Positions 925 to 40,219 are shown, counted from the stretch's first letter. The stretch is 64,000 bases of DNA from an uncultured Gammaproteobacteria bacterium (GCA_963729605.1 CAVSNY010000006.1:96001-160000), one strand, 5' to 3'. Made by a program: numbers and translations. Notes: generated by a model from the sequence alone, not told the origin.

Positions 925-1713
925 ATGAGAAAAATGACCGTGGCAAAGGCGCTGTCCGGCCTTATCGGCATCACCATGGCGGGCGCGGCCAGCGCGCATT
1001 TTCAAATGGTGATCCCCTCCAGCGACATGGTAAGCACCCCCGCCGAGCGGAAGCTCAACCTGGACGTGAAATTTTGGCATCCCTTCGAAGGGCACGGCAT
1101 GGACATGGAATCACCCGCCAAATTCGGTGTATGGATCGACGGCGAAACCGTGGATCTGCGCAATAGCCTGAAGCCACAGACCTACACCGACGTGGAAGGG
1201 AAGAAGCATAAGGGTTTCCATGCCGACTACAGCCTTAAAAAACCGGGCGATCACATTTTCTTCATCGAACCCAAACCCTATTGGGAACCGTCGGAAGAGG
1301 CCTTCATCGTTCATTACACCAAAGTCGTGGTCAACGGCATGGGCCTGGAAGAAGGGTGGGATGAAGAACTCGGTCTCAAAACCGAAATCATACCGCTCAC
1401 CCGTCCTTACGGCCTGTATGCCGGCAACGTCTTCCAGGGAATAGTGAAGGTCAACGGCAAGCCCGTGCCTTTCACGGAAGTGGAAGTGGAGTATTACAAC
1501 GAAGACGGCAAATTGAAGGCATCCGCGGGGCCTTTGATCACCCAAGTGATCAAGGCCGACGCCAACGGTATCTTCACCTACGCCATGCCCAAGGCCGGCT
1601 GGTGGGGATTCGCCGCGCTGAATGAAGATGAAAAGAAAATGAAGCACGAGGGCAAGGACTACCCGGTGGAAATCGGCGCCCTGCTGTGGGTCAAGACCCA
1701 CAATATGAAATAG
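925..1713 (+). CDS. DUF4198 periplasmic protein (Ni/Co uptake-associated)
   Basis: Signal peptide then HFQMVIP; [22 protein letters not shown] and GWWGFAAL motifs; RBS gagga. Confidence 0.85.
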
Positions 1714-1724
1714 GTCATACTACA

Positions 1725-1764
1725 TTTGGCTCGGCGGGGCCGATAAACATCTCGCCGAGCCAAA
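1725..1764 (+). terminator. Hairpin after the DUF4198 gene (possible terminator)
   Basis: tttggctcggcg...cgccgagccaaa, 12-bp inverted repeat; no strong U-tract. Confidence 0.5.
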
Positions 1765-1854
1765 CGTCCCGCGGTTTCCTATACTGGTCTCAAGCCGGGT
1801 CGACAATAGAGCATGACCCCGGCTTCTTCAACGCCAACTCGAAGGAGTACCACC

Positions 1855-2220
1855 ATGATTAAACGTCCTATGCTCGCCATGTTCTGGAACGCGGTCCTGC
1901 TCCTCGGCTGGTCGGGTTACGCCGCCGCCCACTCCAGCTTGCATCACTCGGACCCGGCCGCCAACAGCACGGTCGCCTCGCCGCCCGTGGTGCAACTCTG
2001 GTTCAGCAAACCTCTGGAAGCGTCATTCAGCAAAGTGAACGTCGTCGACGGGCAAGGCAAGACGGTGGACAAAGGCGATGGCGCGGTCAAAGGCGAAGAC
2101 GCCAAACTACTGGAAACAAGTCTGCCCCCCCTGGCGGCGGGCACCTATAAAGTCATTTGGCGCATCGTGGCGATGGACGGGCACAAGTCCAAGGGCGAAT
2201 ACAGCTTCACCGTCAAATAA
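1855..2220 (+). CDS. copC: Copper-binding protein CopC
   Basis: Signal peptide then N-terminal His (AHSSLHHSDPAAN); C-terminal WRIVAMDGH; RBS gaaggag before ATG 1855. Confidence 0.9.
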   Translation: MIKRPMLAMFWNAVLLLGWSGYAAAHSSLHHSDPAANSTVASPPVVQLWFSKPLEASFSKVNVVDGQGKTVDKGDGAVKGEDAKLLETSLPPLAAGTYKVIWRIVAMDGHKSKGEYSFTVK

Positions 2221-2232
2221 AGGCCGCCCACG

Positions 2233-3261
2233 GTGATCGACAATCCCGTCTCCGTCGCCGTCACGGCGATCGAGTTGGTCATCCTCGCCGCGGCCATGGG
2301 CGCCGTGGCCGGCGCATTGTGGATATTACCCGCCGGCAACAACACCTCATCGCCACAAAATCCGCCGCATCTGTATCGCCGGCTTAGCACGTTGTTAGGC
2401 TTGTGCCTGGTCGCCCTCACCTTCACCAGCCTTGCCGGCTTGCTGCTGCGCACCGCCAGCATGAGCGAGCTGCCGGTGTGGAGCGCCTTCCCGGCGCTGG
2501 GTACGGTACTCTTCAAAACCCATTTCGGGGAACTGTGGTTATGGCGGGCCGCGGCGCTGCTGGGCCTGTGGATCATCTGGGCGCTGCAACGACGTAATCC
2601 GTCATCACGCAGCCTGTCGGCCGGCGGATTCATCGCCCTGGCCGCCATCATCTTCACGCTCAGCGGCTCGGGTCACCCCGGCGACGACGGTCTGCTGTCC
2701 CTCGCCAATCTCGCCAACACCCTGCACATCATCGGGGCCTTTTTGTGGGGCGGCGGCATCATCGCCATGATGGTGATCATCCTGCCCGCCCTGCTGCGCG
2801 ACCGTACGGCCGCGCGCGAACTCATCGCACTGACCAGCTTGCGCCTGTCCACCCTGGCCGGCATCGCCCTGGCCATGGTGCTGGTGCCGGGCATATACAA
2901 CGCCTGGCTGCTGGTCGGCAGCTGGCGGGGCTTATGGGAAAATCTCTACGGGCAATTACTGCTGGCGAAGATCGTACTGGCCGGCGCCATGGCCGGCCTG
3001 GGCGCGCTCAATCGCTATGTGTACGTTCCGGCCATTCAGCGCCACGCCGGATTGCCCGAACCGCGCATCCTGCTGCCTCTGCCGCGCTTCATGCACACCC
3101 ATGACAACGCCGGCTCTCCAAAACACTTCCTCAAAAGCCTGCGCGTGGAAGCGGCCCTGCTGATCGGCGTACTCGCCTTCGCCGCCGCGCTCTCGCAACA
3201 GACACCGGCGGCCCATGATGAACATGATATGGCTGAACACACCGACCCGGCCTCCGAATAA
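2233..3261 (+). CDS. copD: Copper transport membrane protein CopD
   Basis: Multi-TM protein after copC; THFG-LW, SGHPG, LHIIGAFLWGGG, YGQLLLAKI and LGALNR motifs. Confidence 0.85.
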   Translation: MIDNPVSVAVTAIELVILAAAMGAVAGALWILPAGNNTSSPQNPPHLYRRLSTLLGLCLVALTFTSLAGLLLRTASMSELPVWSAFPALGTVLFKTHFGELWLWRAAALLGLWIIWALQRRNPSSRSLSAGGFIALAAIIFTLSGSGHPGDDGLLSLANLANTLHIIGAFLWGGGIIAMMVIILPALLRDRTAARELIALTSLRLSTLAGIALAMVLVPGIYNAWLLVGSWRGLWENLYGQLLLAKIVLAGAMAGLGALNRYVYVPAIQRHAGLPEPRILLPLPRFMHTHDNAGSPKHFLKSLRVEAALLIGVLAFAAALSQQTPAAHDEHDMAEHTDPASE

Positions 3262-3442: not shown

Positions 3443-4657
3443 TCAACAACCACCGTCGAGCAATTCCACCCAATGCCGCACCTGTACCGCGGCCCCGCTT
3501 TGCAAATGCAGCTGACAGCCGATGTTGGCGGTGACGATGAGGTCGGGCGCGCCGGCTTGCAGCGCGGTGAGTTTATTGGCGAGTAATTGTTGCGAGAGTT
3601 CCGGCTGCAGGATCGAATAGGTGCCCGCCGAGCCACAGCAGAGATGTCCGTCCGCCACCGCGGTGAGTTGATACCCGCAACGGCGCAACACATCTTCGAC
3701 CACGCCGTTGACTTGTTGTCCATGCTGTAAAGTGCAGGGCGCGTGAAACGCCACCTTGCGGCCGCGGCCGTTCACGGTCAGCGTTTCCACCTGCTCACCC
3801 GCGAGAATCTCGCCGAGGTCTTTGGTCAAGGCGCTGATACGCGCGGCCTTGGCCGCGTAAACAGGATCATCGTGCAATAATGCGCCGTAATCCTTCACCA
3901 CCGCACCGCACCCGCTCGCCGTCATCACGATGGCCTCCGCGCCCGCCTCGACGTGGGGCCACCACGCATCGATGTTGCGGCGCATGAAATTGCGCGCATC
4001 GTCGTGCGCCGAGAGATGATGGCTGAGCGCGCCGCAACAGCCGGCATCCACGGCGCGGATCAAACTAATGCCCAGCTTGTCCAAGACCCGCGCCGCCGCC
4101 GCGTTGGTATTGGGCGCCGCGGCGGGTTGCACGCAGCCGTCGAGCACCAGCATCTTGCGCGCGTGGCGCGCGACCGGCCAAGCCGCCGCGGCCTGCACCG
4201 CCGGTATTTTCTTGCGCAAGGCCGCCGGCAAAAAAGGCCGCAGCGCACGGCCGATGCGCAACAGCGCGGCGAAACGTTGCGGATAAGGAATCAGCGCGCG
4301 CAACACGGCGCGCCGCGCGCGTGCGCCGAACGAGCGCGGTACCTTTTCCTCCACCATCGCCCGGCCGATGTCGACCAGCCGGCCGTAACGCACGCCCGAC
4401 GGACAGGTGGTTTCACAGGAGCGGCAGGTGAGACAGCGGTCGAGATGCAGCTGAGTCTTCTCCGTGACCGGGCCGCCCTCCAGCACCTGCTTGATGAGAT
4501 AGATGCGGCCGCGCGGACTATCCAGTTCATCGCCGAGCAATTGATAAGTGGGACAGGTGGCGGTGCAGAAACCGCAATGCACGCAGGAACGCAGGATGGC
4601 ATCCGCCTCCCGGCCTTCGGGCGTGTCTTTTACCGCATCGCTGAGTGACGTCTGCAT
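3443..4657 (-). CDS. glcF: Glycolate dehydrogenase iron-sulfur subunit
   Basis: CVHCGFCTATCP and CLTCRSCETTCP ferredoxin motifs; two CCG domains; TANIGCQLHL. Confidence 0.95.
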   Translation of the reverse strand: MQTSLSDAVKDTPEGREADAILRSCVHCGFCTATCPTYQLLGDELDSPRGRIYLIKQVLEGGPVTEKTQLHLDRCLTCRSCETTCPSGVRYGRLVDIGRAMVEEKVPRSFGARARRAVLRALIPYPQRFAALLRIGRALRPFLPAALRKKIPAVQAAAAWPVARHARKMLVLDGCVQPAAAPNTNAAAARVLDKLGISLIRAVDAGCCGALSHHLSAHDDARNFMRRNIDAWWPHVEAGAEAIVMTASGCGAVVKDYGALLHDDPVYAAKAARISALTKDLGEILAGEQVETLTVNGRGRKVAFHAPCTLQHGQQVNGVVEDVLRRCGYQLTAVADGHLCCGSAGTYSILQPELSQQLLANKLTALQAGAPDLIVTANIGCQLHLQSGAAVQVRHWVELLDGGC

Positions 4658-4692
4658 AATTTAAGCTTTACACGATCGCTAATGACTGGTGA

Positions 4693-5745
4693 TTACAACG
4701 CCGCATACATCCGCCCGCGATTGAATATCCCTTTGGGGTCGAAGGCCTGCTTCACCCGTTGCTGCAAGGTCAGCAGCGCGGGCGGCAAGGGATGGAAACG
4801 TTCATCGCCCGCACCGCCGCGAAACAACAGCGCATGGCCGCCGGCCTGTTCAGCGGCCTTGCGCACAGTAGCGGCGTCGGCCGCGGTTTTCAACCAACGC
4901 AGCGCTCCGCCCCACTCCAGCAGCCAGTCACCGGCGAGGGCCAGCGGCGGCGTCGCGGGCGGCACCGATAGCCGCCACAGCAGCGTAGCATCATCGAAAA
5001 ACGCATGGCGCTGCTCGCGCACCCGTTGCCAGAACTCGGCGGCGTCATCGACGATCTCGCCGCCGATCTGCCGGTGCGCACTCTCGACCGCCGACGCGGC
5101 GCCCGACAGCCGCACGTACAACACACCGGCGGCCACACAGGTCGCCGAGACCGGCAGCGGCCGCCCCGCCCAGCGATTCATCTGCGCGATCGCGTCGACG
5201 CCGGGCAGCGCGAGGGTGAGCTCGTACGCGGGCCGCGGCAATACTTTCAAGCTCACATCGAGGATCACGCCGAGCGTGCCCAGCGCACCCGTCATCAGCC
5301 GCGACACATCATAACCCGCGACGTTCTTCATCACCTCGCCGCCGAAATGCAGCACCTCACCGCGGCCGTTGATGATGGCCATTCCCAGCACGAAATCGCG
5401 CGCCGCGCCCGCATACGCGCGCCGCGGCCCCGACAGACCGCAGGCGATGGTCCCGCCCAGCGTCGCCGCGTCGCCGTAATGCGGCGGCTCGAAGGCGAGG
5501 ATCTGCTTGTGCTCTTCCAGCGCGGCCTCGATCTCGCGCAGCGGCGTGCCCGCGCGCGCCGTGAGCACAAGCTCGGTCGGCTGATAATGGACGATGCCGC
5601 GATGACCCGTCACATCGAGCGGCTCGCCTTCTGCCGCGCTGCCGAGAAAGGCCTTCGTCCCGCCGCCAACGATGCGCAGCGGCGCCGCGCGCGCGAGCGC
5701 ATCGCGCACCTGCGTCTCAAGCTGGGAGGTCAAATCCTTGTACAT
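4693..5745 (-). CDS. glcE: Glycolate dehydrogenase FAD subunit (start uncertain, 5745 or 5772)
   Basis: GGGTK, FEPPH, GGEVMKNVAGYDVSRL and FDPKGIFNRGRMY motifs. Confidence 0.93.
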   Translation of the reverse strand: MYKDLTSQLETQVRDALARAAPLRIVGGGTKAFLGSAAEGEPLDVTGHRGIVHYQPTELVLTARAGTPLREIEAALEEHKQILAFEPPHYGDAATLGGTIACGLSGPRRAYAGAARDFVLGMAIINGRGEVLHFGGEVMKNVAGYDVSRLMTGALGTLGVILDVSLKVLPRPAYELTLALPGVDAIAQMNRWAGRPLPVSATCVAAGVLYVRLSGAASAVESAHRQIGGEIVDDAAEFWQRVREQRHAFFDDATLLWRLSVPPATPPLALAGDWLLEWGGALRWLKTAADAATVRKAAEQAGGHALLFRGGAGDERFHPLPPALLTLQQRVKQAFDPKGIFNRGRMYAAL

Positions 5746-5774
5746 GAGCACACAGCAGGACGTGCGATCCACAT

Positions 5775-5990
5775 CCCCCGTAGACGCAGCCGAGCATCGC
5801 AGATCAGGAGAGAACAGGCCCGCAGGGGCGCGGCAAGGATGCCGCGCGTTTTCCGACAGGCCAGGGAGGGCCTGTCGGAAAACCCCTCTCCTGATCGAGA
5901 AGCGCAGGGTACCCGCAGGGCAAGTCTCCGGGCGGCCTTTCTTTTGGTTACTTTTCTTTGGCCGCGCAAAGAAAAGTAACTCGCCCGCGG
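5775..5990. repeat. Highly structured non-coding palindromic element between glcD and glcE; degenerate partial copy at about 6027-6065
   Basis: Perfect stems 5802-5812/5886-5896 (11 bp), 5828-5835/5840-5847 (8 bp), 5848-5862/5869-5883 (15 bp), 5947-5960/5967-5980 (14 bp). Confidence 0.75.
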
Positions 5991-6106
5991 TGCGAGAACC
6001 GCATTAAATAATGCCTTCTGGTCAACGTTTTTTGGGGACGCAAAGAAAAGCAGATCGCTCGCGGTGCGAACGGCGTAGTCGAGAATACGTTTACATAGCG
6101 CTTGCA

Positions 6107-7600
6107 TCAAAATCTATCCAACTCCGGAAAGCGTACCTGCCCGGCATGCACATGCATCGCCCCGAACTCCGCGCAGCGATGCAGCGTCGGCACCGCCTTG
6201 CCCGGATTCAGCAAGCCCGCCGGGTCGAACGCCGCTTTGATCGCGTGAAATTGCTGCAACTCCGCCGGCCGGAACTGCACGCACATCTGATCGATCTTCT
6301 CCATGCCGACGCCGTGCTCGCCGGTGATCGTGCCGCCGACCGCGACGCAGAGCTCCAGTATCTTGCCGCCGAATTCCTCTGTGCGTTGCAGCTCGCCCGG
6401 CTTGTTGGCGTCGTACAAGATCAATGGATGCAGATTGCCGTCGCCGGCATGAAACACATTGGCGACCGGCAGATTGTATTCATGCGACAGCTCGGCGATG
6501 CGCCGCAACACCGCCGGCAAATGCCGACGGGGGATGGTGCCGTCCATGCAATAATAATCGGGCGCGAGGCGGCCCACCGCGGGAAACGCCGCCTTGCGGC
6601 CTTTCCACAACATGGCGCGTTCGTGCTCGTCGCGCGCCGTGCGCACTTCCACCGCGCCACACAGCGCGAGAATGTCGTGGATGTGCATGATGTGCTCGGA
6701 CACCTCTTCATTGGTCCCGTCGACCTCGCACAGCAGAATCGCCTCGGCGTTGAGCGGGTATCCGGCATGTACGAAATCCTCGGCGGCCTTGATCGCGAGC
6801 CGATCCATCATCTCGAGGCCAGCCGGGATGATGCCCGCGGCGATGATCTCGCCCACCGCCGCGCCCGCCTTCACGACGTCGTCGAAGGCCGCGAGCACGA
6901 CCTGCGCGCGTTCGGGCAGCGGCAGCAGCTTCACCGTCACCTCGACGATGACGCCGAGCATGCCCTCCGAGCCGTGGAACAACGCGAGCAAGTCATAACC
7001 CGGCGCATCGAGTGCGTCGCCGCCGAGGGTCAGCCGCTCGCCCTCGGCGGTGACGATCTCGAGCTTCAGCACATTGTGCACGGTGAGCCCGTATTTGAGG
7101 CAATGCACGCCGCCCGAGTTCTCGGCGACGTTGCCGCCGATGGTGCAGGCGATCTGCGACGAGGGATCGGGCGCGTAATAAAGGCCGTGCGGCGCCGCGG
7201 CCTGCGAGATCGCGAGATTGCGCACGCCGGGCTGTACGCGCGCGGTGCGGTTGAGCGGATCGATCGCGAGGATGGATTTGAACTTGGCGAGGCTCAGCAC
7301 CACACCGTGCTCGTGCGGCAACGCGCCGCCCGACAGGCCGGTGCCGGCGCCGCGCGCCACCACCGGCACGCCGCGGGCGTGACAGAGCCGCATCACGGCC
7401 TGCACCTGTTCGATCGTGCTCGGCAGCACGACGATCATGGGCAAACGGCGATAGGCCGAGAGGCCGTCGCATTCGTAGGGACGCAGGTCTTCCTCGTCGC
7501 AGAGCACGGCCTCGCGCGGCAGCAATGCGCGCAGCGCCGCCAGCAACGCATCCTTCTCGGCGCCCGTGTATTTCACCGTCGGCTGTTCATGCATGCTCAT
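6107..7600 (-). CDS. glcD: Glycolate dehydrogenase FAD-linked subunit
   Basis: ARGAGTGLSGG, YAPDPSSQIACTIGGN, HAGDGNLHP, GEHGVG and LHRCAEFGAMHVH motifs. Confidence 0.96.
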   Translation of the reverse strand: MSMHEQPTVKYTGAEKDALLAALRALLPREAVLCDEEDLRPYECDGLSAYRRLPMIVVLPSTIEQVQAVMRLCHARGVPVVARGAGTGLSGGALPHEHGVVLSLAKFKSILAIDPLNRTARVQPGVRNLAISQAAAPHGLYYAPDPSSQIACTIGGNVAENSGGVHCLKYGLTVHNVLKLEIVTAEGERLTLGGDALDAPGYDLLALFHGSEGMLGVIVEVTVKLLPLPERAQVVLAAFDDVVKAGAAVGEIIAAGIIPAGLEMMDRLAIKAAEDFVHAGYPLNAEAILLCEVDGTNEEVSEHIMHIHDILALCGAVEVRTARDEHERAMLWKGRKAAFPAVGRLAPDYYCMDGTIPRRHLPAVLRRIAELSHEYNLPVANVFHAGDGNLHPLILYDANKPGELQRTEEFGGKILELCVAVGGTITGEHGVGMEKIDQMCVQFRPAELQQFHAIKAAFDPAGLLNPGKAVPTLHRCAEFGAMHVHAGQVRFPELDRF

Positions 7601-7686
7601 CTATCGCGCACTTTAAAGATCGGCATTGGACGCATTATGCCTCAGCCGCCGCATCGGCGCAGCGTGAAAGGTCCGCGGCCGGCGGT

Positions 7687-9012
7687 TCACCGCGGCGGCC
7701 GCAGCCGCCGGAACACCGTCGCGAGTGCCTGCTCGTCGCCGACGTTGCCCGGAAAGATCACGACCGGCATGTCGGGAAACCGCGGGTGATCCGCCGGGCA
7801 GCGCACCACCGAGCAGCCCGCGAGGATCTGGCCGAGCACGCGCGCGCTCTTGAGCGCGAGGCCGCTGCTCAGCACGTCGTTCGAAGTGATGCCGCCCTTG
7901 CTGATCAAAAAACCGAGCTCGGCCGGCAGCGCGCGCACGACGTCCATCAAAAAGGCCGAGACGCGTTCGCCGAACGCGAGACGCGTCTCCGTATCGGCGA
8001 AGCGCATTTCGGTGCGGCTGGTGTAGATCACGGGCGTAAGATCGGAACGATGCGCCTCCGCCGCGGCCTGTTCGACCTGCCGCAACAGGGCCGTGCGCTC
8101 GCCGTCGATGCGCGCGACGTCGATCTCGATCGGCACGGCGTCCGGCTCCTTCAGCAACTGTTCCAACTGCAAGGTGCTCTTGCGCACATGCGAGCCGACG
8201 ACGACCGCACCCGCGCGGCCGCCGCGCACGTAGTTCGCCATGGCCTCGGCGGCGACCGGCTGCGGCGGCAGCGCCGCGAGCGCGGTGAGCAGGCTCGCGG
8301 CGCTGCGGAACAAGAAGCGCTTGCCCTCGGCCGCGGCGCGTTTGATCTCGGCGGCGAAGTGGTCGAGATCGGCCTGGCGTTCGGCGTCGACCACGCCGCA
8401 GCGGTTGCCGTGCAATTGCAGCAGCCGCGGCAACAGCCCGCCGCGCACGTCGGCCAGCAGAAAACGTTCGACGTCCTGCGCGGCGATGCGGCCGCGGGTC
8501 TTTTCTTCGACGTAGGCCGGCAGATAGCTCGTGGTGTAGCCGAACACCGAGTCGCGCGCGAACTCGGTCTCGTGGGTCGGCACCGGGCGGCCATCGACGA
8601 TCAAATAGTGAATGCTGTCGCGGGTGATACGGCCGCCTTCGAAAAACGCCGGCACCAGGAAGTGCGCGTCGAAGGGGCCGAGCTCCTCGGCAATCACATC
8701 GGTCTCGACCGGATAATGGCCACGCAAGGTCGAATCGGAACGGCTCACCAGCACGGGATTGATCGCGCGGCCCTCACCGCGCAAGCCATCGAGCGCGGTC
8801 TTGAGATTGCGGCACACCTCGCGCGTCACCGCCGCCGCGCGCGGCGCATCCATGCCGCGGGTGTTGGTGAGCACGAAGAACAGCGGCGCGGCGTCGAGCA
8901 AGGCCGCCCGCAGCGTGGCCACGTCCCAGCGCGTCAGCAGCAGGCAGCCGTGTACGGTCTGCGAGCCGGTCGGGTCGTCATCGAGGACGATGATCTTTGT
9001 TTGTTCGCTCAT
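7687..9012 (-). CDS. Four-carbon acid-sugar kinase family protein (DUF1537), DDDPTG subtype
   Basis: IIVLDDDPTGSQTVH, LTNTR, SRSDSTLRGH, VGSHV, SKGGITS and IFPGNVG motifs; start at ATG 9012 (the upstream extension is repeat sequence). Confidence 0.9.
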   Translation of the reverse strand: MSEQTKIIVLDDDPTGSQTVHGCLLLTRWDVATLRAALLDAAPLFFVLTNTRGMDAPRAAAVTREVCRNLKTALDGLRGEGRAINPVLVSRSDSTLRGHYPVETDVIAEELGPFDAHFLVPAFFEGGRITRDSIHYLIVDGRPVPTHETEFARDSVFGYTTSYLPAYVEEKTRGRIAAQDVERFLLADVRGGLLPRLLQLHGNRCGVVDAERQADLDHFAAEIKRAAAEGKRFLFRSAASLLTALAALPPQPVAAEAMANYVRGGRAGAVVVGSHVRKSTLQLEQLLKEPDAVPIEIDVARIDGERTALLRQVEQAAAEAHRSDLTPVIYTSRTEMRFADTETRLAFGERVSAFLMDVVRALPAELGFLISKGGITSNDVLSSGLALKSARVLGQILAGCSVVRCPADHPRFPDMPVVIFPGNVGDEQALATVFRRLRPPR

Positions 9013-9035
9013 GGATAAATCACTCTTCTCCAACT

Positions 9036-9224
9036 CCCCCCGCTCCCGCGGGCGGGGAGAGGGGCGGGGTGAGGGTTCCGAAAGAATCTTCACTGCGCGA
9101 GGAGCACCATTTCTTTTCCGTCCCTCACCCGGCCCTGCGGGCCACCCTCTCCCGCCCGCGGGAGAGGGGCAGCGCGATAGCGGTGTGCCCTCTTTAGCTA
9201 CCCTCTTCCGCGTGCGGGAGAGTG
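9036..9224. repeat. Cluster of BoxC/REP-like palindromes: inverted doublet 9036-9075 and 9122-9168, plus degenerate 9188-9224
   Basis: ccctcaccc...ccctctcccgcccgcgggagaggg and its reverse complement. Confidence 0.8.
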
Positions 9225-9283
9225 AAAAGCAATGCAGCGTTGGGTACGTTCACAAACATGAACCCAAGCCCTTTGGCTCGAGC

Positions 9284-11512
9284 TCAACCGCGCCCCATCA
9301 AGCCCTGCACGCGCGCCGTCATGGCCTCGGCGGTGATGCCGTTGAAGGCCATGATCTCGCCGGGCGAGGCCGTGGTCTCGCCGCGCTGCCAGCACACCAC
9401 GTCGCGGCGCGGCGCGCGCGTGCGCAGCAACACCGGTTCGAGCGAGGCGCTGGGGCCGCCGCTCACCGCGAGCAACGCATCGCCGTCGAATAGCGCGTTG
9501 AACTGATCGTCATCCATGAATTCATTATCGGGTTCGGACACGGTGTTCCACGCGACGTCGGTGGGACGATACAGACGGCGCGGATTCACCACCGCGACGA
9601 TGCGCACGCGATAGCCGGCCTGCTCCAATTGCACCTTGGCCTCGAACACCGGCAGCAGCACCATGTCGCCGGTCACCGCGAGCACCACGCTGCCGCGCGT
9701 GCCGCTGGTGCTTTCGTACAACATGATCGCGCCGCGCTCGACGGCCTGCTCGCCCTGCGCCAGCGTGGTGTAGACCGGCAGCGGACTCTTCGAGGCGATG
9801 ATCACCACGCCTTTGTTGTAGCTGTTGGTGCCCCATTCGAACGCGGCCTGGATCATATTGGCGTCGACCGGGAACAGCGGATAGACGTTGCCGTTGCGCA
9901 TCATGGCCGCGAAATAGTTTTCGATCTCGGGGCGCTGATGGGTCCAGCCGTTGCGGCCCTGCTCGAGCGCGCCGGCCGTGAACATGCAGACGATGGACGG
10001 CGTCCGGCGGCGCAGCTCGGCCATGGCCTGGGTCACCGTTTGAATGATGGGCCAGCCGTTGATCGCGAAGCTCTCGTACGACAGCCACAGCGCCCGCGAG
10101 CCGAACAGCGCGAGGCCGGCGGCGAGACCCGCGCAGGCATCCTCGTTGAGCGGCTCGTAGACCTGGCCCGCGGCGCTCTGATTGTAGAGCTCGTCATTGG
10201 TCGGGTGGCGGATCTTGAGCGCGTCGTTGATGTTCTTCATGCCCGAGGCCTCGTTGCCGTCGGCGTTGGTGACGACGTAGCGCGGATCGCGCCGGCCCAC
10301 CTCGGCCACCAGCGCGCCCATCGCGGTGGATGGCACGGCCTTGTCGCCGAGCGCGTATTCGAGCGCGGGCAGCGTGCCGAGCGGTGCGATGTCGAGCATG
10401 TGTTCAGTCACCGAGGTCTTCACCGCGGGGCCGCCGCCCGCGCGGCGGAAGTTGTCGCGCACGATACTCCACGCTTGCGGCGGCAGGGCGCGGCGTTGCA
10501 GGCCGTCGATGATGTGCTGCTTGTCGAGCGTGTCGGCCGGATAGAGGTTGTGCGACTTCGCGCCCAGCGCATGCACACCCGCGCCTTTGAGCTGCTTGAT
10601 GATGAAGCAGGTCAGCGTGCCGCCGAGCGCCGACTTCGCCGCGCGGTCCATGCCGCGCAGCACCGCGGCCGTGAAGGCCAGACGCTGCGGCAGCGAGAAG
10701 CGCGTGCTGTCGACGTACGCGCCCTGCTGGCCGCTGTCGTCGTAGGTCTTGGCATCGACCAGAATCACTTCTTTGAAACCGTGGCCGCGCCAGTAGGCGA
10801 TCATCTCGTCGTCGCTCATGGTCGAGACCATGGAGTGATGTTCCTGGCTGTAGCCGTTCCAGATCAAGGTCGGCAGGAAATTGGTGGCGCGCGGATACGC
10901 GGTGTTGAAGTGCATCATCGCCGACAAAATATAGGGCTCGCCCATGCCGCCGTCGCCGAGCGTGAACGGGAATAACGTGCCCGGGTGCAACAGCGCGCCG
11001 GCCATCGCGAAGTGCTGGCCCTGGCCGAGCGGCCCCGCGGGCGCGAGGATGCCGGGGATCGCGCCCGACAGATGGCCGAGCAGGCCGTGTTTCTCGCGGA
11101 AGCGGTCGCGGAGCTGTTGCACGGTCTTGATGCCCATCGCCTCCAGCGAGGTGTCGAGGAACATGGCGCTGTAGAAACCCGGCGCGTGATGACCGACCTC
11201 GGTGACGATGTTGGTGTGGCCCAGCATCACCAGCGCGGCATAGGCCTCGGCGCTGCTCGCGAAGCCGCCCGGGTGGCCCGAGGCCTTCGCGCCACAGACT
11301 TGCAGCGTGAGATAGCGCAGGGCGTCGGCGCCGAGCAGGGTCTGATAAATCGCGCGCGGGTCGGCGGTGTCGGCGATCGCGGTCGCACCCTCGCCGATCA
11401 CGGCGCCGTCGGCGTGCCGGCCATGGTCCGGCCAGGGCTCGCCGAAATACTGGATACCCGCGCAAAAATCGGGCGCGGCGGTGGCAAGAATCTCGGTAGT
11501 GGCGCGGCTCAT
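9284..11512 (-). CDS. ThDP-dependent phosphoketolase-like enzyme (resembles the short cyanobacterial-type subfamily)
   Basis: SGHPGG, VGHHAPG, GPLGQG, ThDP motif GDGG...WNG, SYESF and NGWTHQ; RBS aggag upstream of ATG 11512. Confidence 0.85.
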   Translation of the reverse strand: MSRATTEILATAAPDFCAGIQYFGEPWPDHGRHADGAVIGEGATAIADTADPRAIYQTLLGADALRYLTLQVCGAKASGHPGGFASSAEAYAALVMLGHTNIVTEVGHHAPGFYSAMFLDTSLEAMGIKTVQQLRDRFREKHGLLGHLSGAIPGILAPAGPLGQGQHFAMAGALLHPGTLFPFTLGDGGMGEPYILSAMMHFNTAYPRATNFLPTLIWNGYSQEHHSMVSTMSDDEMIAYWRGHGFKEVILVDAKTYDDSGQQGAYVDSTRFSLPQRLAFTAAVLRGMDRAAKSALGGTLTCFIIKQLKGAGVHALGAKSHNLYPADTLDKQHIIDGLQRRALPPQAWSIVRDNFRRAGGGPAVKTSVTEHMLDIAPLGTLPALEYALGDKAVPSTAMGALVAEVGRRDPRYVVTNADGNEASGMKNINDALKIRHPTNDELYNQSAAGQVYEPLNEDACAGLAAGLALFGSRALWLSYESFAINGWPIIQTVTQAMAELRRRTPSIVCMFTAGALEQGRNGWTHQRPEIENYFAAMMRNGNVYPLFPVDANMIQAAFEWGTNSYNKGVVIIASKSPLPVYTTLAQGEQAVERGAIMLYESTSGTRGSVVLAVTGDMVLLPVFEAKVQLEQAGYRVRIVAVVNPRRLYRPTDVAWNTVSEPDNEFMDDDQFNALFDGDALLAVSGGPSASLEPVLLRTRAPRRDVVCWQRGETTASPGEIMAFNGITAEAMTARVQGLMGRG

Positions 11513-11598
11513 GACTGCATCTCCTGGAAAATCGATCTCACCCCAGGGTGGGGATGGACACACCATACCCGGCGGCCGCAAATCCCACAATACAGAAT

Positions 11599-11619
11599 AT
11601 TTTTCATAATATGAAAAAT
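11599..11619. promoter_or_regulatory. Perfect palindrome, likely the IclR operator, in the divergent promoter region
   Basis: ATTTTTCAT-AAT-ATGAAAAAT, 9-bp inverted repeat between the ThDP enzyme and the IclR gene. Confidence 0.65.
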
Positions 11620-11624
11620 GCTTT

Positions 11625-12395
11625 ATGCTAGACCCCATGAAAGACCAAACCCCCTCGGGCATCCAAGTCATAGACCGCGCCGCTCGCCTGCTGGCGGCCA
11701 TCGCCGCCGCCGGCGGGCCGGTCTCCCTCAAGTATCTGTCGGCGGACACCGGCCTGCACCCCTCCACCACCTTCCGGATCCTGGCGGCCTTGCAGCAACA
11801 CGAACTGGTGGAAAAAGGCCCCGACGGCAATTACACCCTGGGCCGCGGCCTCGCCCGCCTCGCGCAACGGCTGCCCGCCCGCCCCGACCTGCGGGAATTG
11901 GCCAAACCCATCATGAATGAACTGCGTGACCGCACCGGAGAAACCGTCAATCTCACCGTGCGCGAAGGCGACGAAGTGGTGTATGTGGAACGCGTGTTGC
12001 CCAATCGCATGATGCGGGTCGAGCAGGTCATCGGCAGCCGCGCGCCGTTGCACGTCACCGCCGTGGGCAAACTCCTGCTCGGCGAAGACAGCGAAGAGGC
12101 CTGCCGCGATTACGCCCGCCGCACCGGCCTGCCGAAATACACCGCCAACACCCTGGTCAGCCAAAAGAGCCTGCTGGCCGACATCAAACAGTGCGTCGCC
12201 CGCGGTTATGCCCGGGATAACGAAGAGGCGGAGCTCGGCGTGGGCTGCGTCGGCGTGCTGGTACGCGACACCCGGGGCGAGGCGGTCGCCGGCTTATCCA
12301 TTTCCGCGCCGCGGGAGCGTTTAAAAGAGGATTGGATCCCTTTGCTGCAAACCGCCGGCAGGCGCTTGTCCCGTCATCTGGGTTATTCGGATTGA
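11625..12395 (+). CDS. IclR-family transcriptional regulator (start may be 11637)
   Basis: IQVIDRA...GLHPSTTFRIL HTH; GETVNL, APLHVTAVGK, GYARDNEEAELG and LSISAP motifs. Confidence 0.93.
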   Translation: MLDPMKDQTPSGIQVIDRAARLLAAIAAAGGPVSLKYLSADTGLHPSTTFRILAALQQHELVEKGPDGNYTLGRGLARLAQRLPARPDLRELAKPIMNELRDRTGETVNLTVREGDEVVYVERVLPNRMMRVEQVIGSRAPLHVTAVGKLLLGEDSEEACRDYARRTGLPKYTANTLVSQKSLLADIKQCVARGYARDNEEAELGVGCVGVLVRDTRGEAVAGLSISAPRERLKEDWIPLLQTAGRRLSRHLGYSD

Positions 12396-12564
12396 ACCAT
12401 CGGCCGCGGGCTTATACGATTCAGGCAGACCGTTAGAATTAATTCGTCTAAAATTTCCCGTTAACGCCACGAGATTTTTATTATAATTTCGAGTCATAGA
12501 ATCGTGAACGGCGCTTATCGCCGCGGCCACAACCCTATTGGACTCAACCTGGAATCAACGCACC

Positions 12565-13266
12565 ATGGCGCACAACCTGCAGTCAGTATCCACCCCCCCG
12601 GTTCCCGGCACCGTGGACATCCAGGCCCTCAACGAAAAATACGCACCACTCAGCTTCGAAGCGCGGATTCGCGCCCTCTATCAGGATTTTGATCCCGCCC
12701 AGGTGATGGTGACCTCGTCCTTCGCCGCCACCTCGGCCTATTTTCTACACATCATCTCGCGCATCCGTCCGGAGCAAACCATCTTTTTCATCAACACCGG
12801 TTATCACTTCCCGGAAACCTTGACTTATAAAGACGCGTTGATCCGGCAATACCATCTCAAGGTCACGGACGTAACGCCGGAGGAGTGGAAACACGAATTC
12901 ACCGCCAAGGAAAAAACCTATGCGACCGATCCTGATTTCTGCTGCTCGATAAACAAGGTCGAACCGCTGGAAGAGGTGAAAAAGAATTTCAAGGTCTGGG
13001 TCTCCAGCCTGATGCGCTGGCAAACCGAACACCGCGCCGGTCTCAATGTGTTCGAGGAGCGCGGCGGCATCATCAAGTTTTACCCCATGATCGACGTCAG
13101 CAAAGCGGAGCGCGACACCTACATCAGCGAACACGACCTGCCCCTCCACCCGCTGGTGGCCCACGGCTATTCCTCCATCGGTTGCTCCCACTGCACTAAG
13201 CCGGGCGACGACCGCGGCGGGCGCTGGGTGGATACCCCCAAAACCGAATGCGGCCTCCATCTGTAA
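12565..13266 (+). CDS. cysH: CysH-family sulfonucleotide reductase with Fe-S motifs (probably APS reductase)
   Basis: TSSF, NTGYHFPET, CC (FCCSINKVEPL), CxxC (SIGCSHCT) and C-terminal ECGLH. Confidence 0.88.
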   Translation: MAHNLQSVSTPPVPGTVDIQALNEKYAPLSFEARIRALYQDFDPAQVMVTSSFAATSAYFLHIISRIRPEQTIFFINTGYHFPETLTYKDALIRQYHLKVTDVTPEEWKHEFTAKEKTYATDPDFCCSINKVEPLEEVKKNFKVWVSSLMRWQTEHRAGLNVFEERGGIIKFYPMIDVSKAERDTYISEHDLPLHPLVAHGYSSIGCSHCTKPGDDRGGRWVDTPKTECGLHL

Positions 13267-13416: not shown

Positions 13417-14313
13417 GTGACGTATGCTGAACTCCGCAATCCACCAAGCCGGTTGTTCACCTTGCCTGTTCAGTACCGCGTTTCTATCGTTGCCTTCGCT
13501 CTGTTCCTGACCGCCTGTTCCGGAATGGTGACTCAGCGCCTCGGCGCCAGTCTGGGCAACGCGATCGTCAATCAAGACGACCCCGCCACGGTGCGCGACG
13601 GTGCGCCTGCTTATCTGCTGCTGGTGGATGGACTGATCGCCGACCGGCCCGATGACCGCGGCTTATTGATCTCCGCCGCGCAACTCTATAGTTCCTACGC
13701 CATGGTGTTTGTCGAAGACCCGGCGCGGGCGCAGGTCATGACCGCTAAAGCGCGAGCTTATGCGCGGCGCGCCTTCTGCGCCGATCAGCCGCGGCTTTGC
13801 GAATTGGACGGCGGCCCGCAGCCGCCCTTCGCCGCCGGCCTCCAGAACGTCACGTCATCACGGCTGCCGGCCTTGTACGCCTACGCCACCAGTTGGGCGG
13901 CCTGGATCAAGGCGCGCGGCGGCGAACCGCTGGCCTTGGCCGATGTACCGAAAGTCGAGGCGATGCTGGCGCGGGTGGTCGAGCTGGACGAAAGTTATGC
14001 GCGCGGTGAGGCGCAACTCTATTTGGGCATTTTGCGCAGCCAGATTCCGCCGGCCCTGGGCGGACGTCCCGAGATCGGACAGCGGCATTTCGAAAAGGCC
14101 ATCGCCATTTCCGAAGGACGCAATCTATTCGCCAAGCTGGAATACGCGCGCCATTACGCGCGGCTGGTCTTCGACCGAGCACTGCACGACCGCCTGCTGA
14201 ACGAAATCTTGACCGCCGATCCCACCGCCCCCGGCTACACCCTCGGCAACGTGCTGGCGCAACAACAGGCACGAATACTGCTGGAAGGCTCCGCCGATTA
14301 TTTTGAGGAATAA
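13417..14313 (+). CDS. TRAP-associated TatT lipoprotein (start uncertain)
   Basis: Lipobox FLTAC; QDDPATVRDGAPAYLLLVDGLI and PPALGGRPE motifs; directly upstream of dctPQM. Confidence 0.82.
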   Translation: MTYAELRNPPSRLFTLPVQYRVSIVAFALFLTACSGMVTQRLGASLGNAIVNQDDPATVRDGAPAYLLLVDGLIADRPDDRGLLISAAQLYSSYAMVFVEDPARAQVMTAKARAYARRAFCADQPRLCELDGGPQPPFAAGLQNVTSSRLPALYAYATSWAAWIKARGGEPLALADVPKVEAMLARVVELDESYARGEAQLYLGILRSQIPPALGGRPEIGQRHFEKAIAISEGRNLFAKLEYARHYARLVFDRALHDRLLNEILTADPTAPGYTLGNVLAQQQARILLEGSADYFEE

Positions 14314-14316
14314 GTC

Positions 14317-15321
14317 ATGTTGAAAGGGATTTTCGCCGCCGCGTTGTGCCTGCTTTTCCTCAGTCAACCCAGCGGGGCGGCGACCACATTAAAAATCGCC
14401 ACCATCGCCCCCGACGGCACCAGCTGGATGCAGGCGCTGCGCAAAGGCGGGGACGACATCGCCAAACGCACCGAGGGCCGGGTGAAATTGCGTTTTTTCC
14501 CCGGCGGGGTGATGGGCAACGATAAAAGCGTATTGCGCAAAATCCGTCTCGGCCAATTACACGGCGGCGTGCTGGTGAGCGGCGGCCTCACCGAGGTCTA
14601 CCCCGATATCGCGCTGTACAATATTCCCTTCCTCTTCCGCTCCTATCAAGAAGTCGATTACGTGCGCGAACGCATGGACCCCTTGTTGTTACAGGGCCTG
14701 GCGGAGCGCGGCTTCGTCAGCTTCGGCTTCAGCGAGGGCGGCTTCGCTTATTTGATGTCCAATCAAGCGGTGCGCAGCCTCGACGATTTGAAAAGCAAAA
14801 AGGTCTGGGTGCCCGATGACGACCGCATCAGCCGTATCGCGATTGAATCGCTCGGCGTCACGCCCATCCCCTTGCCGCTCACCGATGTCCTGCCCAGCTT
14901 GCAGACCGGACTCATCGATACCATCGCCGGTTCGGCGATCGGCGTGGTCGCGCTGCAATGGCAGCCGCAGGTGAAGTACCTGGTGGATGAACCGCTGGTG
15001 TATCTCTACGCCACCATGGCGGTCGACCGCAAGGCCTTCGAGCGCGTCAGTGCCGCCGATCAAGCCATCGTGCGCGAAGTCATGAGCGGCGTGTTCCGTA
15101 AACTCGATCAACAAAACCGCAGCGACGACGCGGCCGCCCATCGAGCCTTGAAGACGCAGGGCATAAAATACGTGGCGCCCACGGCGGAGTCTCTGCAAAA
15201 CGAGGCGAAGATCCGCGCCGAAGTGGAACAGCGCCTGCTGCAACAACGCATTCTCTCGCCGGAACTGATGGAGAGTTTGAAGACCCATCTCAATAAACAG
15301 CGGCAGACGGCCGCACCCTGA
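14317..15321 (+). CDS. dctP: TRAP transporter substrate-binding protein
   Basis: Signal peptide; KIATIAPDGTSW, FPGGVMG and SLQTGLID motifs. Confidence 0.9.
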   Translation: MLKGIFAAALCLLFLSQPSGAATTLKIATIAPDGTSWMQALRKGGDDIAKRTEGRVKLRFFPGGVMGNDKSVLRKIRLGQLHGGVLVSGGLTEVYPDIALYNIPFLFRSYQEVDYVRERMDPLLLQGLAERGFVSFGFSEGGFAYLMSNQAVRSLDDLKSKKVWVPDDDRISRIAIESLGVTPIPLPLTDVLPSLQTGLIDTIAGSAIGVVALQWQPQVKYLVDEPLVYLYATMAVDRKAFERVSAADQAIVREVMSGVFRKLDQQNRSDDAAAHRALKTQGIKYVAPTAESLQNEAKIRAEVEQRLLQQRILSPELMESLKTHLNKQRQTAAP

Positions 15322-15340
15322 AGCGGCGCCGCTAACGGCC

Positions 15341-15856
15341 ATGCCCAACACCCGTTCCCCCAGCAGTTGGTTGCAGCACGGTAAAAAAATCATCGCCCGT
15401 ATCGAAGACGGCGTGCTGGTTCTTTTGTTGACGGTGATGATAGGCACCGCCACCGCGCAGATCGTGCTGCGTAATGTCTGGGACAGCGGCCTGATATGGA
15501 GCGACCCGCTCACCAAGGTGCTGGTGTTGTGGATCGGCCTGGTGGGGGCGATGGTCGCCAGCCGCCAGAACAACCATATTCATATCGACGTGTTGTCGCG
15601 TTTCCTGCCGGCCCGCGCCAAGGCGGCGAGTGAAGCGCTCAATTCGCTGTTCGCCGCCGCGGTCTGCGGCGTGCTCGCTTATCACGCCGGGCGTCTGGTG
15701 CTGCTCGACAAAGAAGCGGCGACCGTCGCCTTCGGCACCGTGCCGACCTGGGTCTGCGAATTGATCATCCCCTTCGGTTTCGGCGTCATCGGTTTGCGTT
15801 ACGCCGTGCTGGCGCTGAGCGACGCCGTCAGTTTGATGACCGCGAAAAAATCATGA
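15341..15856 (+). CDS. dctQ: TRAP transporter small permease
   Basis: 4 TM segments; QIVLRN and HIHIDV motifs. Confidence 0.88.
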   Translation: MPNTRSPSSWLQHGKKIIARIEDGVLVLLLTVMIGTATAQIVLRNVWDSGLIWSDPLTKVLVLWIGLVGAMVASRQNNHIHIDVLSRFLPARAKAASEALNSLFAAAVCGVLAYHAGRLVLLDKEAATVAFGTVPTWVCELIIPFGFGVIGLRYAVLALSDAVSLMTAKKS

Positions 15857-17133
15857 TCGTCGCCGCCGCCCTGCTCCTCGTCCTGCTCGCCCTGCTCGGC
15901 GCGCCGCTGTTCGCGGTGATCGCCGGCGGCGCGCTGTTGGCGTTTTATCAAGCCGACACCGATCTCGCGGTGATCGCCGCGGAATTCTACCGGCTCGCCG
16001 AAATGCCCATGCTGGTCGCCATTCCGCTCTTCACCTTCGCCGGCTATTTGTTGAGCGAAAGCCAGGCGCCGGCGCGCCTGGTGAAACTGAGCCAGGCTTT
16101 GCTGGGCTGGCTGCCCGGCGGCCTCGCCGTGGTGGCCCTCGTCACCTGCGCGTTTTTCACCGCCTTCACCGGCGCCTCGGGCGTGACCATCGTCGCCCTC
16201 GGCGCCTTGCTGTTTCCGGCGCTGGTGCAGGCCGGCTATCCGGAGCGTTTCAGTCTCGGCCTGATCACCACGTCGGGCAGCCTCGGCATGTTGTTCGCGC
16301 CCGCCGTGCCCTTGATCCTCTACGCGGTAATCGCGCAGCAACTCAACGTCGGCCGCAGTTTTACCATCGACGAGATGTTCATCGCCGGACTGTTGCCGGG
16401 CCTGCTCATGCTGAGCCTGCTCGCCGCCTGGAGCCTGTGGGTCAACCGCCATCTGCCGCGCCATCCCGTATCTTGGCGCGAGGCGGGCGCCGCGCTTTAC
16501 GCCGCGCGTTGGGAACTGCCGCTGCCGTTGATCGTCTTGGGCGGTATCTATAGCGGTTATTTCGCGGTATCGGAAGCGGCGGCGGTCACCGCCCTCTATG
16601 TATTGATCGTGGAAGTGCTGGTCTATCGCGAGATCCCGCTCCGGAAACTGCCGCGCATCATGCGCGACGCCATGGTGCTGGTCGGCGCGTTGCTGATCAT
16701 TCTCGGCGTCTCGCTGGCCCTCACCAATTATTTCATCGACGCCGATATTCCGGCGCGGATCTTCGCCACGGTCAAACACTATGTGAGCGATCCGTTGACC
16801 TTTCTGCTGCTGCTGAATCTGCTGCTGCTGTGTCTGGGTATCTTGCACGACATCTCGGCGCTGGTGATCGTCGTGCCGTTATTATTGCCGGTGGCCGTCG
16901 CCTACGGCATCGATCCCGTCCACTTCGGCATCATCTTCATCGCCAATATGCAGATCGGTTATTTTTTCCCGCCGCTGGGCCTCAATCTCTTCATCGCCAG
17001 TTACCGCTTTAAAAAACCGGTGATGGAACTGGTCCGCGCCACCTTGCCGTTTCTGATCATCCTGCTCGGCAGCATATTCATCATCACCTATTGGCCCGCC
17101 TTGTCGCTGGCACTGACGAGCAAGGGATCTTGA
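15853..17133 (+). CDS. dctM: TRAP transporter large permease
   Basis: AIPLFTFAG, GSLGMLFAP, GIDPVHFG and PPLGLNLF motifs. Confidence 0.92.
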   Translation: MIVAAALLLVLLALLGAPLFAVIAGGALLAFYQADTDLAVIAAEFYRLAEMPMLVAIPLFTFAGYLLSESQAPARLVKLSQALLGWLPGGLAVVALVTCAFFTAFTGASGVTIVALGALLFPALVQAGYPERFSLGLITTSGSLGMLFAPAVPLILYAVIAQQLNVGRSFTIDEMFIAGLLPGLLMLSLLAAWSLWVNRHLPRHPVSWREAGAALYAARWELPLPLIVLGGIYSGYFAVSEAAAVTALYVLIVEVLVYREIPLRKLPRIMRDAMVLVGALLIILGVSLALTNYFIDADIPARIFATVKHYVSDPLTFLLLLNLLLLCLGILHDISALVIVVPLLLPVAVAYGIDPVHFGIIFIANMQIGYFFPPLGLNLFIASYRFKKPVMELVRATLPFLIILLGSIFIITYWPALSLALTSKGS

Positions 17134-37462: not shown

Positions 37463-37467
37463 GCCGC

Positions 37468-39915: not shown

Positions 39916-40219
39916 GAGACCTCCTTCACCGACCGAGTGCATCGGTAACATTCCGCACCAAAACCCGGGCTCTTACCCTAATCCCGGCGCCGCTTGAATA
40001 CAAGAGAAAATCCCCGCTCCACTCGGCGTTCTCTCAGCGCACTAATTTAACTTTAATGTCGATGTGCTGGCACGTCTCCTGCCGGCACCTGACACGCACT
40101 TGCCGTTGCCATGAGTTGGACCCCCTGGCGCGGCGGCATGGGAGAATTTGCGCCTCGAAACGGACAGACTCGCGGCGTCCGCCAATTCGATAGCGGTGGA
40201 ACCGAAAAAACACTTCACC

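Follow-up and report, generated by a model that had tools for sequence, protein, structure and literature searches.

We analysed a window of 64,000 nucleotides (C6:96001-160000) from the genome of an uncultured Gammaproteobacteria bacterium, an assembly of 3.48 Mb that is 94.5% complete. On the minus strand of the window, between positions 3443 and 11512, five genes are transcribed in the order thiamine diphosphate (ThDP) enzyme gene, DUF1537 kinase gene, glcD, glcE and glcF, and the divergent gene of an IclR-family regulator (11625-12395, plus strand) stands in front of them. We have defined as the cassette the regulator gene with its putative operator, the ThDP gene and the kinase gene. The ThDP enzyme is a 742-aa protein of the phosphoketolase superfamily (9284-11512; PF03894 48.5 bits, PF09364 34.7 bits, PF02779 32.4 bits); its listed open reading frame (ORF) reaches 11830, overlapping iclR, and the conserved protein begins at the ATG at 11512. 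The kinase (7687-9012; PF07005 190 bits, PF17042 131 bits) is from a divergent subfamily of the four-carbon acid sugar kinase family. Its reading frame extends to 9093 (7687-9093), and translation probably begins at the ATG at 9012 (MSEQTKIIVLDDDPTG). The three remaining genes are assigned to glycolate oxidase: the FAD subunit GlcD (6107-7600), the subunit GlcE (4693-5772) and the iron-sulfur subunit GlcF (3443-4657), with CCG and 4Fe-4S domains. GlcE and GlcF score well above their equivalog cut-offs (NF008439, 530 bits against 284; NF008434, 685 bits against 333), and GlcD slightly below both of its own (NF008408, 871 bits against 897; TIGR00387, 559 against 568). Gene content and coordinates agree with a preliminary description of this DNA, which had reported five co-oriented genes divergent from iclR with a perfect palindrome between them.

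The palindrome (11599-11619, assigned to no strand) lies between the starts of iclR and the ThDP gene and has two perfect arms of 10 nt around one central base, ATTTTTCATA-a-TATGAAAAAT. Judging from its sequence, it is the probable operator of the IclR regulator. In other genomes, a 15-nt core of this operator recurred with at most three mismatches in 52 of 71 IclR-ThDP intergenic regions, against an expectation of about 0.2 in 71 that comes from arithmetic with uniform base frequencies and no shuffle control. No second site was found in the 3.48-Mb genome, either allowing up to four substitutions or using the degenerate motif TTTCRYRWTRYGAAA. Hence, the regulon may be limited to the gene string of the cassette and glcDEF, and no extra pathway gene is indicated. 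Promoter and terminator scans gave nothing relevant above shuffled sequence. Regarding the regulator itself, which has the helix-turn-helix (HTH) and effector domains of its family (PF01614 150 bits, PF09339 53 bits), the best-scoring NCBIfam model is BhcR, the regulator of the beta-hydroxyaspartate cycle. The 180 bits obtained are under the equivalog cut-off of 350, however, and no bhc enzyme genes were seen in the window, the part of the genome to which that search was confined.

Distribution and neighbours of the cassette

In a scan of one genome per species, the ThDP enzyme was encoded in at least 571 species, and its best 120 database relatives are 76-97% identical to it. The named carriers are Sulfuritortus, Thermithiobacillus, Hydrogenophilaceae, Gallionellaceae, Gallionella, Sideroxydans, Sedimenticola, Thiogranum and Nitrotoga. 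We fetched 80 loci. Wherever at least 1.5 kb of sequence follows the ThDP gene, the next gene on that strand encodes the kinase (76 of 76); one pair overlaps by a base or two, and in loci L004 and L052 the kinase is read in two frames. Next to the ThDP gene and reading away from it stands an IclR gene in 69 of the 72 loci with room for it; it is missing in L057 and L076, both with barely enough room, and in L077. The preliminary description had held that a linkage unique to this genome would undo its proposal; the trio of ThDP enzyme, kinase and IclR regulator occurs instead in hundreds of species, repeatedly beside glcDEF. We also came across a fusion of ThDP enzyme and kinase (P0274, 1191 aa), in which an Arg/Gly-rich linker replaces the conserved C-terminus; it is probably a frameshift or assembly artefact and was not counted.

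The genes around the trio are more varied. glcD lies inside the fetched DNA in 36 of the 80 loci (23 of the 41 in which both flanks were long enough), with GlcD identities of 71-82% across loci. It comes directly after the kinase in 26 of them, and in others, such as L005, L009 and L042, glcDEF is found upstream or on the opposite strand. In Gallionellaceae, lutABC and a GlcG-like gene lie upstream of the cassette, and a Liv-type ATP-binding cassette (ABC) transporter, a methylmalonate-semialdehyde-type dehydrogenase and a reductase over the tartronate-semialdehyde reductase cut-off lie downstream. One Gallionella island (L099 1-15506, on the same contig as L027) is a packed string of kinase, Liv-type ABC transporter, methylmalonate-semialdehyde-type dehydrogenase, tartronate-semialdehyde reductase, 2-hydroxyacid dehydrogenase, malate synthase A and GMC oxidoreductase, with a class V aminotransferase and glcF on the opposite strand and a MOFRL glycerate kinase about 7 kb upstream on the same contig. 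Other loci have tripartite ATP-independent periplasmic (TRAP) transporters near the cassette. When a further 44 downstream ORFs were tallied by Pfam family, no other neighbour recurred. The cassette sits, then, in glyoxylate gene islands of varying make-up. It has spread across lineages of sulfur- and iron-oxidising bacteria with a Calvin cycle, time and again arriving next to genes of glyoxylate metabolism, among them those of 2-hydroxyacid oxidases (glcDEF, or lutABC with a glcG-like gene).

Such an arrival can be followed in the order of the bacterium, for which we compared 12 genomes from 5 genera. A glcD-like gene is present in 12 of the 12 and RuBisCO in 11, and neither glyoxylate carboligase nor malate synthase was found in any of them. 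The cassette occurs in four, belonging to the genus of the bacterium and one other. In a relative that has no cassette (G057), copD-glcFED and tatT-dctPQM follow one another uninterrupted, while in the window glcD and tatT are separated by positions 7687-13266 (kinase, ThDP gene, iclR and a PAPS reductase gene), a segment absent between them in G057. This continuous order identifies the cassette as an accessory insertion beside a pre-existing glcDEF. The gene for phosphoadenosine phosphosulfate (PAPS) reductase (12538-13266, plus strand; NF002537, 206 bits against a cut-off of 154) does not recur beside the cassette in other loci.

Both flanks of the locus are shared with relatives. The TRAP transporter genes tatT-dctP-dctQ-dctM (13417-17133, plus strand; matches to PF16811 and PF03480) are a conserved neighbour of glcDEF, found beside it here and in the cassette-less relative (L092 11302-14918), and may encode an uptake system for glycolate or another hydroxyacid that is tied to glcDEF. 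On the other side, glcF adjoins a block made of a DUF4198 gene, a small ORF and copD (925-3261, plus strand), and the same block stands beside glcF in the relatives G057 and G058.

Two divergent enzymes

Public records annotate the ThDP enzyme as a phosphoketolase. It passes the low Pfam cut-offs of XFP (48.5 bits, cut-off 22) and XFP_N (34.7 bits, cut-off 23.7), and it reaches at most 103 bits with the NCBIfam phosphoketolase models, whose cut-offs are at least 777; with the transketolase model TIGR00232 it gives 32 bits, far under the cut-off of 682. Among solved structures, its best sequence relatives are phosphoketolases (E about 6e-24). The AlphaFold model of the protein (predicted local distance difference test score, pLDDT, 78.8; predicted template modelling score, pTM, 0.81; low confidence in the active-site loops 146-162, 311-328 and 514-526) has the predicted three-domain ThDP fold of the phosphoketolase/transketolase type. 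Its isolation was judged against 1.84 billion library sequences, each representing a cluster at 50% identity. A single other full-length representative exceeds 50% identity (56%), followed by a drop to the 25-30% of canonical phosphoketolases, so that the family is a tight, isolated branch.

To compare active sites, we aligned the ThDP enzyme with eight canonical phosphoketolase-like proteins (alignment A2, 13 sequences in total). The phosphoketolase residues His64, His97, His142 and His320 correspond to His80, His108, His147 and His321, the last of these by the MAFFT alignment alone within an N-terminal half that aligns weakly. Glu479, Tyr501, Asn549 and His553 correspond to Glu457, Tyr479, Asn521 and His525. 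These eight positions are invariant or at least 90% conserved across the 13 sequences, and phosphoketolase Gln546 is likewise conserved in the ThDP enzyme. According to PMC6435721, His97 and His142 are dehydration residues, and His64, Tyr501 and Asn549 bind phosphate. Four positions are changed, namely His548 to Arg520, Ser440 to Ala422, Glu437 to Gly419 and Gln321 to Asn322, where the assignment of Gln321 again comes from the MAFFT alignment alone. All four belong to the phosphoketolase active-site model of PMC10547157. In comparison with Xfp, the xylulose-5-phosphate/fructose-6-phosphate phosphoketolase known from Bifidobacterium, Lactococcus and Synechococcus structures, the modelled enzyme has the same three-domain ThDP fold and the same catalytic set. 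It differs, however, in being only 19-30% identical and far under the curated family cut-offs, in having GHPGG where Xfp has GHWGT, in an extra N-terminal segment and the lack of the C-terminal ~70 residues, and in its constant pairing with a DUF1537 kinase. PMC7895386 gives canonical phosphoketolase EC numbers only.

One could argue that the protein is a plain phosphoketolase of unusual sequence, which, at rising glyoxylate, would make acetyl phosphate from Calvin-cycle sugar phosphates, either as an acetyl source for malate synthase or to gain ATP by way of acetate kinase; the role of the DUF1537 kinase would then be unrelated or regulatory. The conserved catalytic set, the phosphoketolase fold of the model and the public annotation agree with this idea, and malate synthase was found in 22 of 50 carriers (of the 80 loci, 50 had their genomes searched for such genes), in some cases in one string with the cassette. 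Against it stand the scores, with no more than 103 bits where at least 777 are asked for, and the four changed positions of the active-site model. It also leaves unexplained why the enzyme is paired in 76 of 76 loci with a private clade of kinases; malate synthase is absent from this genome and from the whole order; and the window already holds another phosphoketolase-like gene beside acetate kinase. We regard this explanation as decidedly improbable.

That second phosphoketolase-family gene (37468-39951, minus strand, 827 aa) is also divergent, with 140 bits against a cut-off of 777, and its product is 26% identical to the cassette enzyme. The acetate kinase gene abuts it (36323-37567, minus strand; TIGR00016, 311 bits against a cut-off of 293), and no Pta over the cut-off was found in the genome.

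Regarding the kinase, both DUF1537 domains are present according to Pfam, the N-terminal one sugar-binding and the C-terminal one nucleotide-binding. With the D-threonate kinase (DtnK) model NF047819 it gives 63.7 bits, under the cut-off of 450; solved structures match only marginally, and all clusters obtained from the ESM Atlas were generic DUF1537 ones, of Cyanobacteriota and Actinomycetota. Outside the cassette, it is most closely related (35-41% identity) to kinases that carry fused L-threonate dehydrogenase-like (LtnD-like) and class II aldolase domains, plant LTD proteins included. By sequence comparison, and following PMC12540250, these relatives are oxo-tetronate-type kinases. We built a quick tree from nine cassette kinases and 39 long relatives, chosen by hand from the 120 listed so as to cover varied domain make-ups. 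The cassette kinases formed a long-stemmed clade of their own within an unresolved group of aldolase-, dehydrogenase- and apionolactonase-fused kinases, so specificity is not readable from the tree. The private clade and the 76 of 76 pairing fit two consecutive steps on a private intermediate.

The closest described systems are the bacterial and plant L-threonate/oxo-tetronate pathways (LtnD, OtnI, 3-OtnK, 3-OtnC; in Arabidopsis, LTD). According to PMC12540250, the known DUF1537 pathways run dehydrogenase-kinase-decarboxylase, and there is a three-step variant with 2-OtnK and an FBP-aldolase-type 2-OtnC. The cassette kinase resembles these systems in its two DUF1537 domains and in its nearest relatives, which are fused to domains of the pathway type. 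Oxo-tetronate 4-phosphate and then dihydroxyacetone phosphate (DHAP), which PMC12540250 describes for them, are also the intermediate and end product that we propose for the cassette below. The cassette differs in that it has no LtnD, OtnI or OtnC partner and a ThDP enzyme in their place, and its hosts are lithoautotrophs, not heterotrophs or plants.

Carrier genomes and host metabolism

In Escherichia coli, the glycolate operon is glcDEF-glcG-glcB and the glycerate pathway gcl-hyi-glxR-glxK. RuBisCO was detected in 47 of the 50 carriers. Glyoxylate carboligase over the cut-off was found in none of the 50, tartronate-semialdehyde reductase over the cut-off in 20 and a MOFRL glycerate kinase in 32, in some of them on the cassette contig. 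Acetate kinase is present in 35 and a phosphotransacetylase (PTA) domain in 26, most of the matches being in frames of ~760-920 aa. Among the 15 carriers without acetate kinase, nine are also without a PTA domain, and six have it only in frames of that size, which we take to be malic-enzyme fusions.

The genome of the bacterium itself has two form-I RuBisCO genes. We found no glyoxylate carboligase in it (best match 245 bits, TIGR01504 cut-off 711), no match to malate synthase, and no tartronate-semialdehyde reductase (best match 61 bits, cut-off 341). The absence of the usual glyoxylate consumers, noted for the window in the preliminary description, extends in this way to the whole genome for gcl and malate synthase; for bhc it applies to the window, where those genes were looked for. 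The locus shares with the E. coli-type glycolate operon its putative glcDEF orthologues, here with an IclR-type regulator that appears close to known glyoxylate sensors, and the Gallionella island shares with the E. coli-type glycolate/glycerate systems a GlcG-like gene, malate synthase, tartronate-semialdehyde reductase and glycerate kinase. Unlike those systems, neither the 50 carriers nor the 12 genomes of the order have a carboligase, the ThDP enzyme and the kinase being the constant partners instead, and malate synthase is missing from this genome and its order.

The ThDP enzyme might be a non-homologous substitute for glyoxylate carboligase. It would decarboxylate one glyoxylate and join it to a second one, which yields tartronate semialdehyde. 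Enzymes from elsewhere in the genome would reduce or isomerise this product, and the kinase would then phosphorylate a three-carbon acid, glycerate or hydroxypyruvate, on the way to 3-phosphoglycerate. This would be in line with carriers that have tartronate-semialdehyde reductase (20 of 50) and MOFRL glycerate kinase (32 of 50) though carboligase is found in 0 of 50, and with the reductase gene in the cassette neighbourhood in 6 of the 80 loci. Yet this genome has no such reductase over the cut-off, the two cassette enzymes would not catalyse consecutive steps, a glycerate kinase is already at hand in many carriers (on the cassette contig in some), and the dehydration and phosphate-site residues would be left without a role. 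DUF1537 kinases described in PMC12540250 also act on four-carbon or branched acids. Such a replacement seems to us quite unlikely. A 2016 study by Zhang et al. is said to have found the same preference for four-carbon or branched acids among DUF1537 kinases.

Possible roles in glyoxylate metabolism

That the cassette is a functional unit is well supported, and it is likely that it belongs to the glycolate/glyoxylate metabolism of Calvin-cycle bacteria. The link to glyoxylate comes from the glcD, lutABC and other glyoxylate-gene neighbours and from the best model of the regulator, the glyoxylate-responsive BhcR; the link to the Calvin cycle comes from RuBisCO in 47 of the 50 carriers and from the named carriers. 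Regulator, ThDP enzyme and kinase together are probably a hitherto undescribed means of dealing with glyoxylate from the oxygen side reaction of Rubisco.

The most coherent reading, which we put forward tentatively and whose chemistry we infer, is a two-carbon transfer onto glyoxylate that leads through 3-oxo-tetronate and its 4-phosphate to DHAP. GlcDEF would oxidise glycolate, derived from Rubisco's 2-phosphoglycolate or taken up, to glyoxylate, and glyoxylate or a close metabolite would release the IclR repressor. The ThDP enzyme would take a two-carbon ketol unit from a Calvin-cycle ketose phosphate (xylulose-5-phosphate, fructose-6-phosphate or sedoheptulose-7-phosphate) and add it to glyoxylate, giving 3-oxo-tetronate, with the carboxylate of glyoxylate perhaps held in the former phosphate site by His80, Tyr479, Asn521 and the new Arg520. 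The kinase would then phosphorylate C4 of 3-oxo-tetronate, and the resulting beta-keto acid would lose CO2, either spontaneously or through a class II aldolase-type enzyme encoded elsewhere, to give DHAP. In net terms, glyoxylate, a pentose phosphate and ATP would yield two triose phosphates and CO2, keeping half of the glycolate carbon, and the proposed route involves neither ammonia release nor NAD(P)H. We favour this scheme on four grounds: the two invariant enzymes become consecutive, its substrates are plentiful in precisely these organisms, its end product is a Calvin-cycle intermediate, and it fits the nearest relatives of the kinase. Two genes of the class II aldolase family (PF01116) in the genome are candidates, and only that, for the decarboxylase. 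One divergent class II aldolase-like gene (C2:190303-191094; L098 1492-2613) gives 127 bits with PF01116, under every NCBIfam aldolase cut-off, and adjoins a gene for a NuoL/NdhF3-like membrane subunit about 10 kb from one of the RuBisCO copies.

Several observations weigh against the transfer onto glyoxylate. First, it needs a decarboxylation for which no dedicated gene was found. No decarboxylase recurs among the 80 neighbourhoods, and no OtnC orthologue over the NF043034 cut-off of 250 was found in the genome, where the better of two PF00596 hits is the one small class II aldolase, MtnB, with 57 bits, and the other, in a 697-aa frame, was not scanned against the model. The preliminary description had likewise seen no OtnC-like decarboxylase. 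Secondly, its proposal that the kinase acts on 3-oxo-tetronate agrees with the oxo-tetronate-type relatives at 35-41% identity and not with the model: the cassette kinase is unmatched by the 3-oxo-tetronate kinase (OtnK) model NF043035 (cut-off 350), whose one hit in the genome, of 10 bits, is at another locus. In all DUF1537 pathways described so far, to our knowledge, the enzyme encoded by the linked gene uses the kinase product as its substrate, and our scheme places the ThDP enzyme before the kinase.

Thirdly, all named dehydration and phosphate-site residues are kept in the ThDP enzyme, a pattern expected of an enzyme that still makes an acyl phosphate. By alignment, the retained residue set fits acetyl-phosphate chemistry at least as well as a transketolase-like transfer. 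In Foldseek comparisons, the model is also nearer to phosphoketolases (template modelling score, TM, 0.68-0.74) than to transketolases (0.57-0.64). Fourthly, the three carriers in which we found no RuBisCO include G030, a record titled chromosome. Finally, the genome has, outside the window, candidate parts of the conventional glycine/serine route, namely GcvP, a MOFRL glycerate kinase, a class V aminotransferase 76% identical to that of the Gallionella island and a 2-hydroxyacid dehydrogenase (hydroxypyruvate-reductase-like) 49% identical to the one there. In sister genera, RuBisCO and glcD are retained though cassette, gcl and malate synthase are all absent. The argument from a missing glyoxylate sink is therefore weak, and the cassette is not needed to close a gap. 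The glyoxylate salvage pathway proposed in the preliminary description is thus supported in part, by the linkage, the RuBisCO genes and the absence of gcl and malate synthase; the retained phosphoketolase residues and the glycine/serine parts, which weaken the missing-sink argument, count against it.

The same residues raise the question of whether the kinase acts first. An oxidoreductase (GlcDEF, LutABC, or an enzyme like LtnD or tartronate-semialdehyde reductase) would oxidise erythronate or threonate, imported or arising from erythrose-4-phosphate damage, to oxo-tetronate; the kinase would make the 4-phosphate; and the ThDP enzyme would take the place of the usual decarboxylase. It would either decarboxylate 2-oxo-tetronate-4-phosphate to glyceraldehyde-3-phosphate, or split 3-oxo-tetronate-4-phosphate into acetyl phosphate and glyoxylate, which malate synthase can rejoin to malate. 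This order keeps phosphoketolase chemistry, in agreement with the conserved catalytic and phosphate-site residues, and would account for the three kinds of hydroxyacid dehydrogenase and the TRAP and ABC transporters as variable neighbours. It would also account for malate synthase in the Gallionella gene string and, by matching coordinates, in L032; acetate kinase is at hand in 35 of 50 carriers and in the window. No enzyme would be missing, and the order matches the dehydrogenase-kinase-decarboxylase pattern of the DUF1537 pathways in PMC12540250. However, one would look for catabolism of external acid sugars in heterotrophs; RuBisCO is present in 47 of 50 carriers, those with names are lithoautotrophs, and no source of tetronate is known in the carriers. 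The glcDEF genes here encode a probable orthologue of true glycolate oxidase that is older than the insertion. In addition, 15 of 50 carriers are without acetate kinase, nine of them also without a PTA domain, and glyoxylate as a product would still need a sink in this genome. We consider the kinase-first order unlikely, with its two variants taken jointly.

A further reading keeps glyoxylate as the acceptor. After a dehydration of the phosphoketolase type, glyoxylate and not a proton would react with the enol-acetyl-ThDP intermediate; malyl phosphate would be set free by phosphate, and from it the four-carbon-acid kinase, working backwards, would form malate and ATP. Such a carbon-conserving, CoA-free 'malate synthase' would recover the glycolate carbon fully with an energy gain, and it would make use of all the conserved phosphoketolase residues, of Arg520, of the strict pairing and of the carriers free of malate synthase. 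We know of no enzymological precedent for it, and we hold it to be very improbable.

In the literature searched, we found no paper that links DUF1537 with phosphoketolase or with glycolate metabolism in autotrophs, nor oxo-tetronate with glyoxylate. The pairing of ThDP enzyme and kinase is not described there; both proteins are from known superfamilies, and the type of pathway has known relatives. There is a real chance that the cassette is a new natural route for photorespiratory glyoxylate. How chemolithoautotrophs that lack a carboligase dispose of Rubisco-derived glyoxylate is poorly known, and at that metabolic node at least 571 species, the cultured Sulfuritortus calidifontis and Thermithiobacillus tepidarius DSM 3134 among them, have the cassette, a pair of enzymes with a regulator of their own. 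Both of its enzymes are deep, unassigned branches of families with well-understood chemistry. If the favoured two-carbon transfer onto glyoxylate is true, the cassette would be a new natural photorespiratory bypass, a short route from glyoxylate to triose phosphate. Such a bypass, or a phosphoketolase acting on keto-acid phosphates, would be of interest for engineering photorespiration bypasses, acetyl-phosphate production or C2 assimilation, and either outcome would correct the blanket 'phosphoketolase' annotation that these proteins carry in databases.

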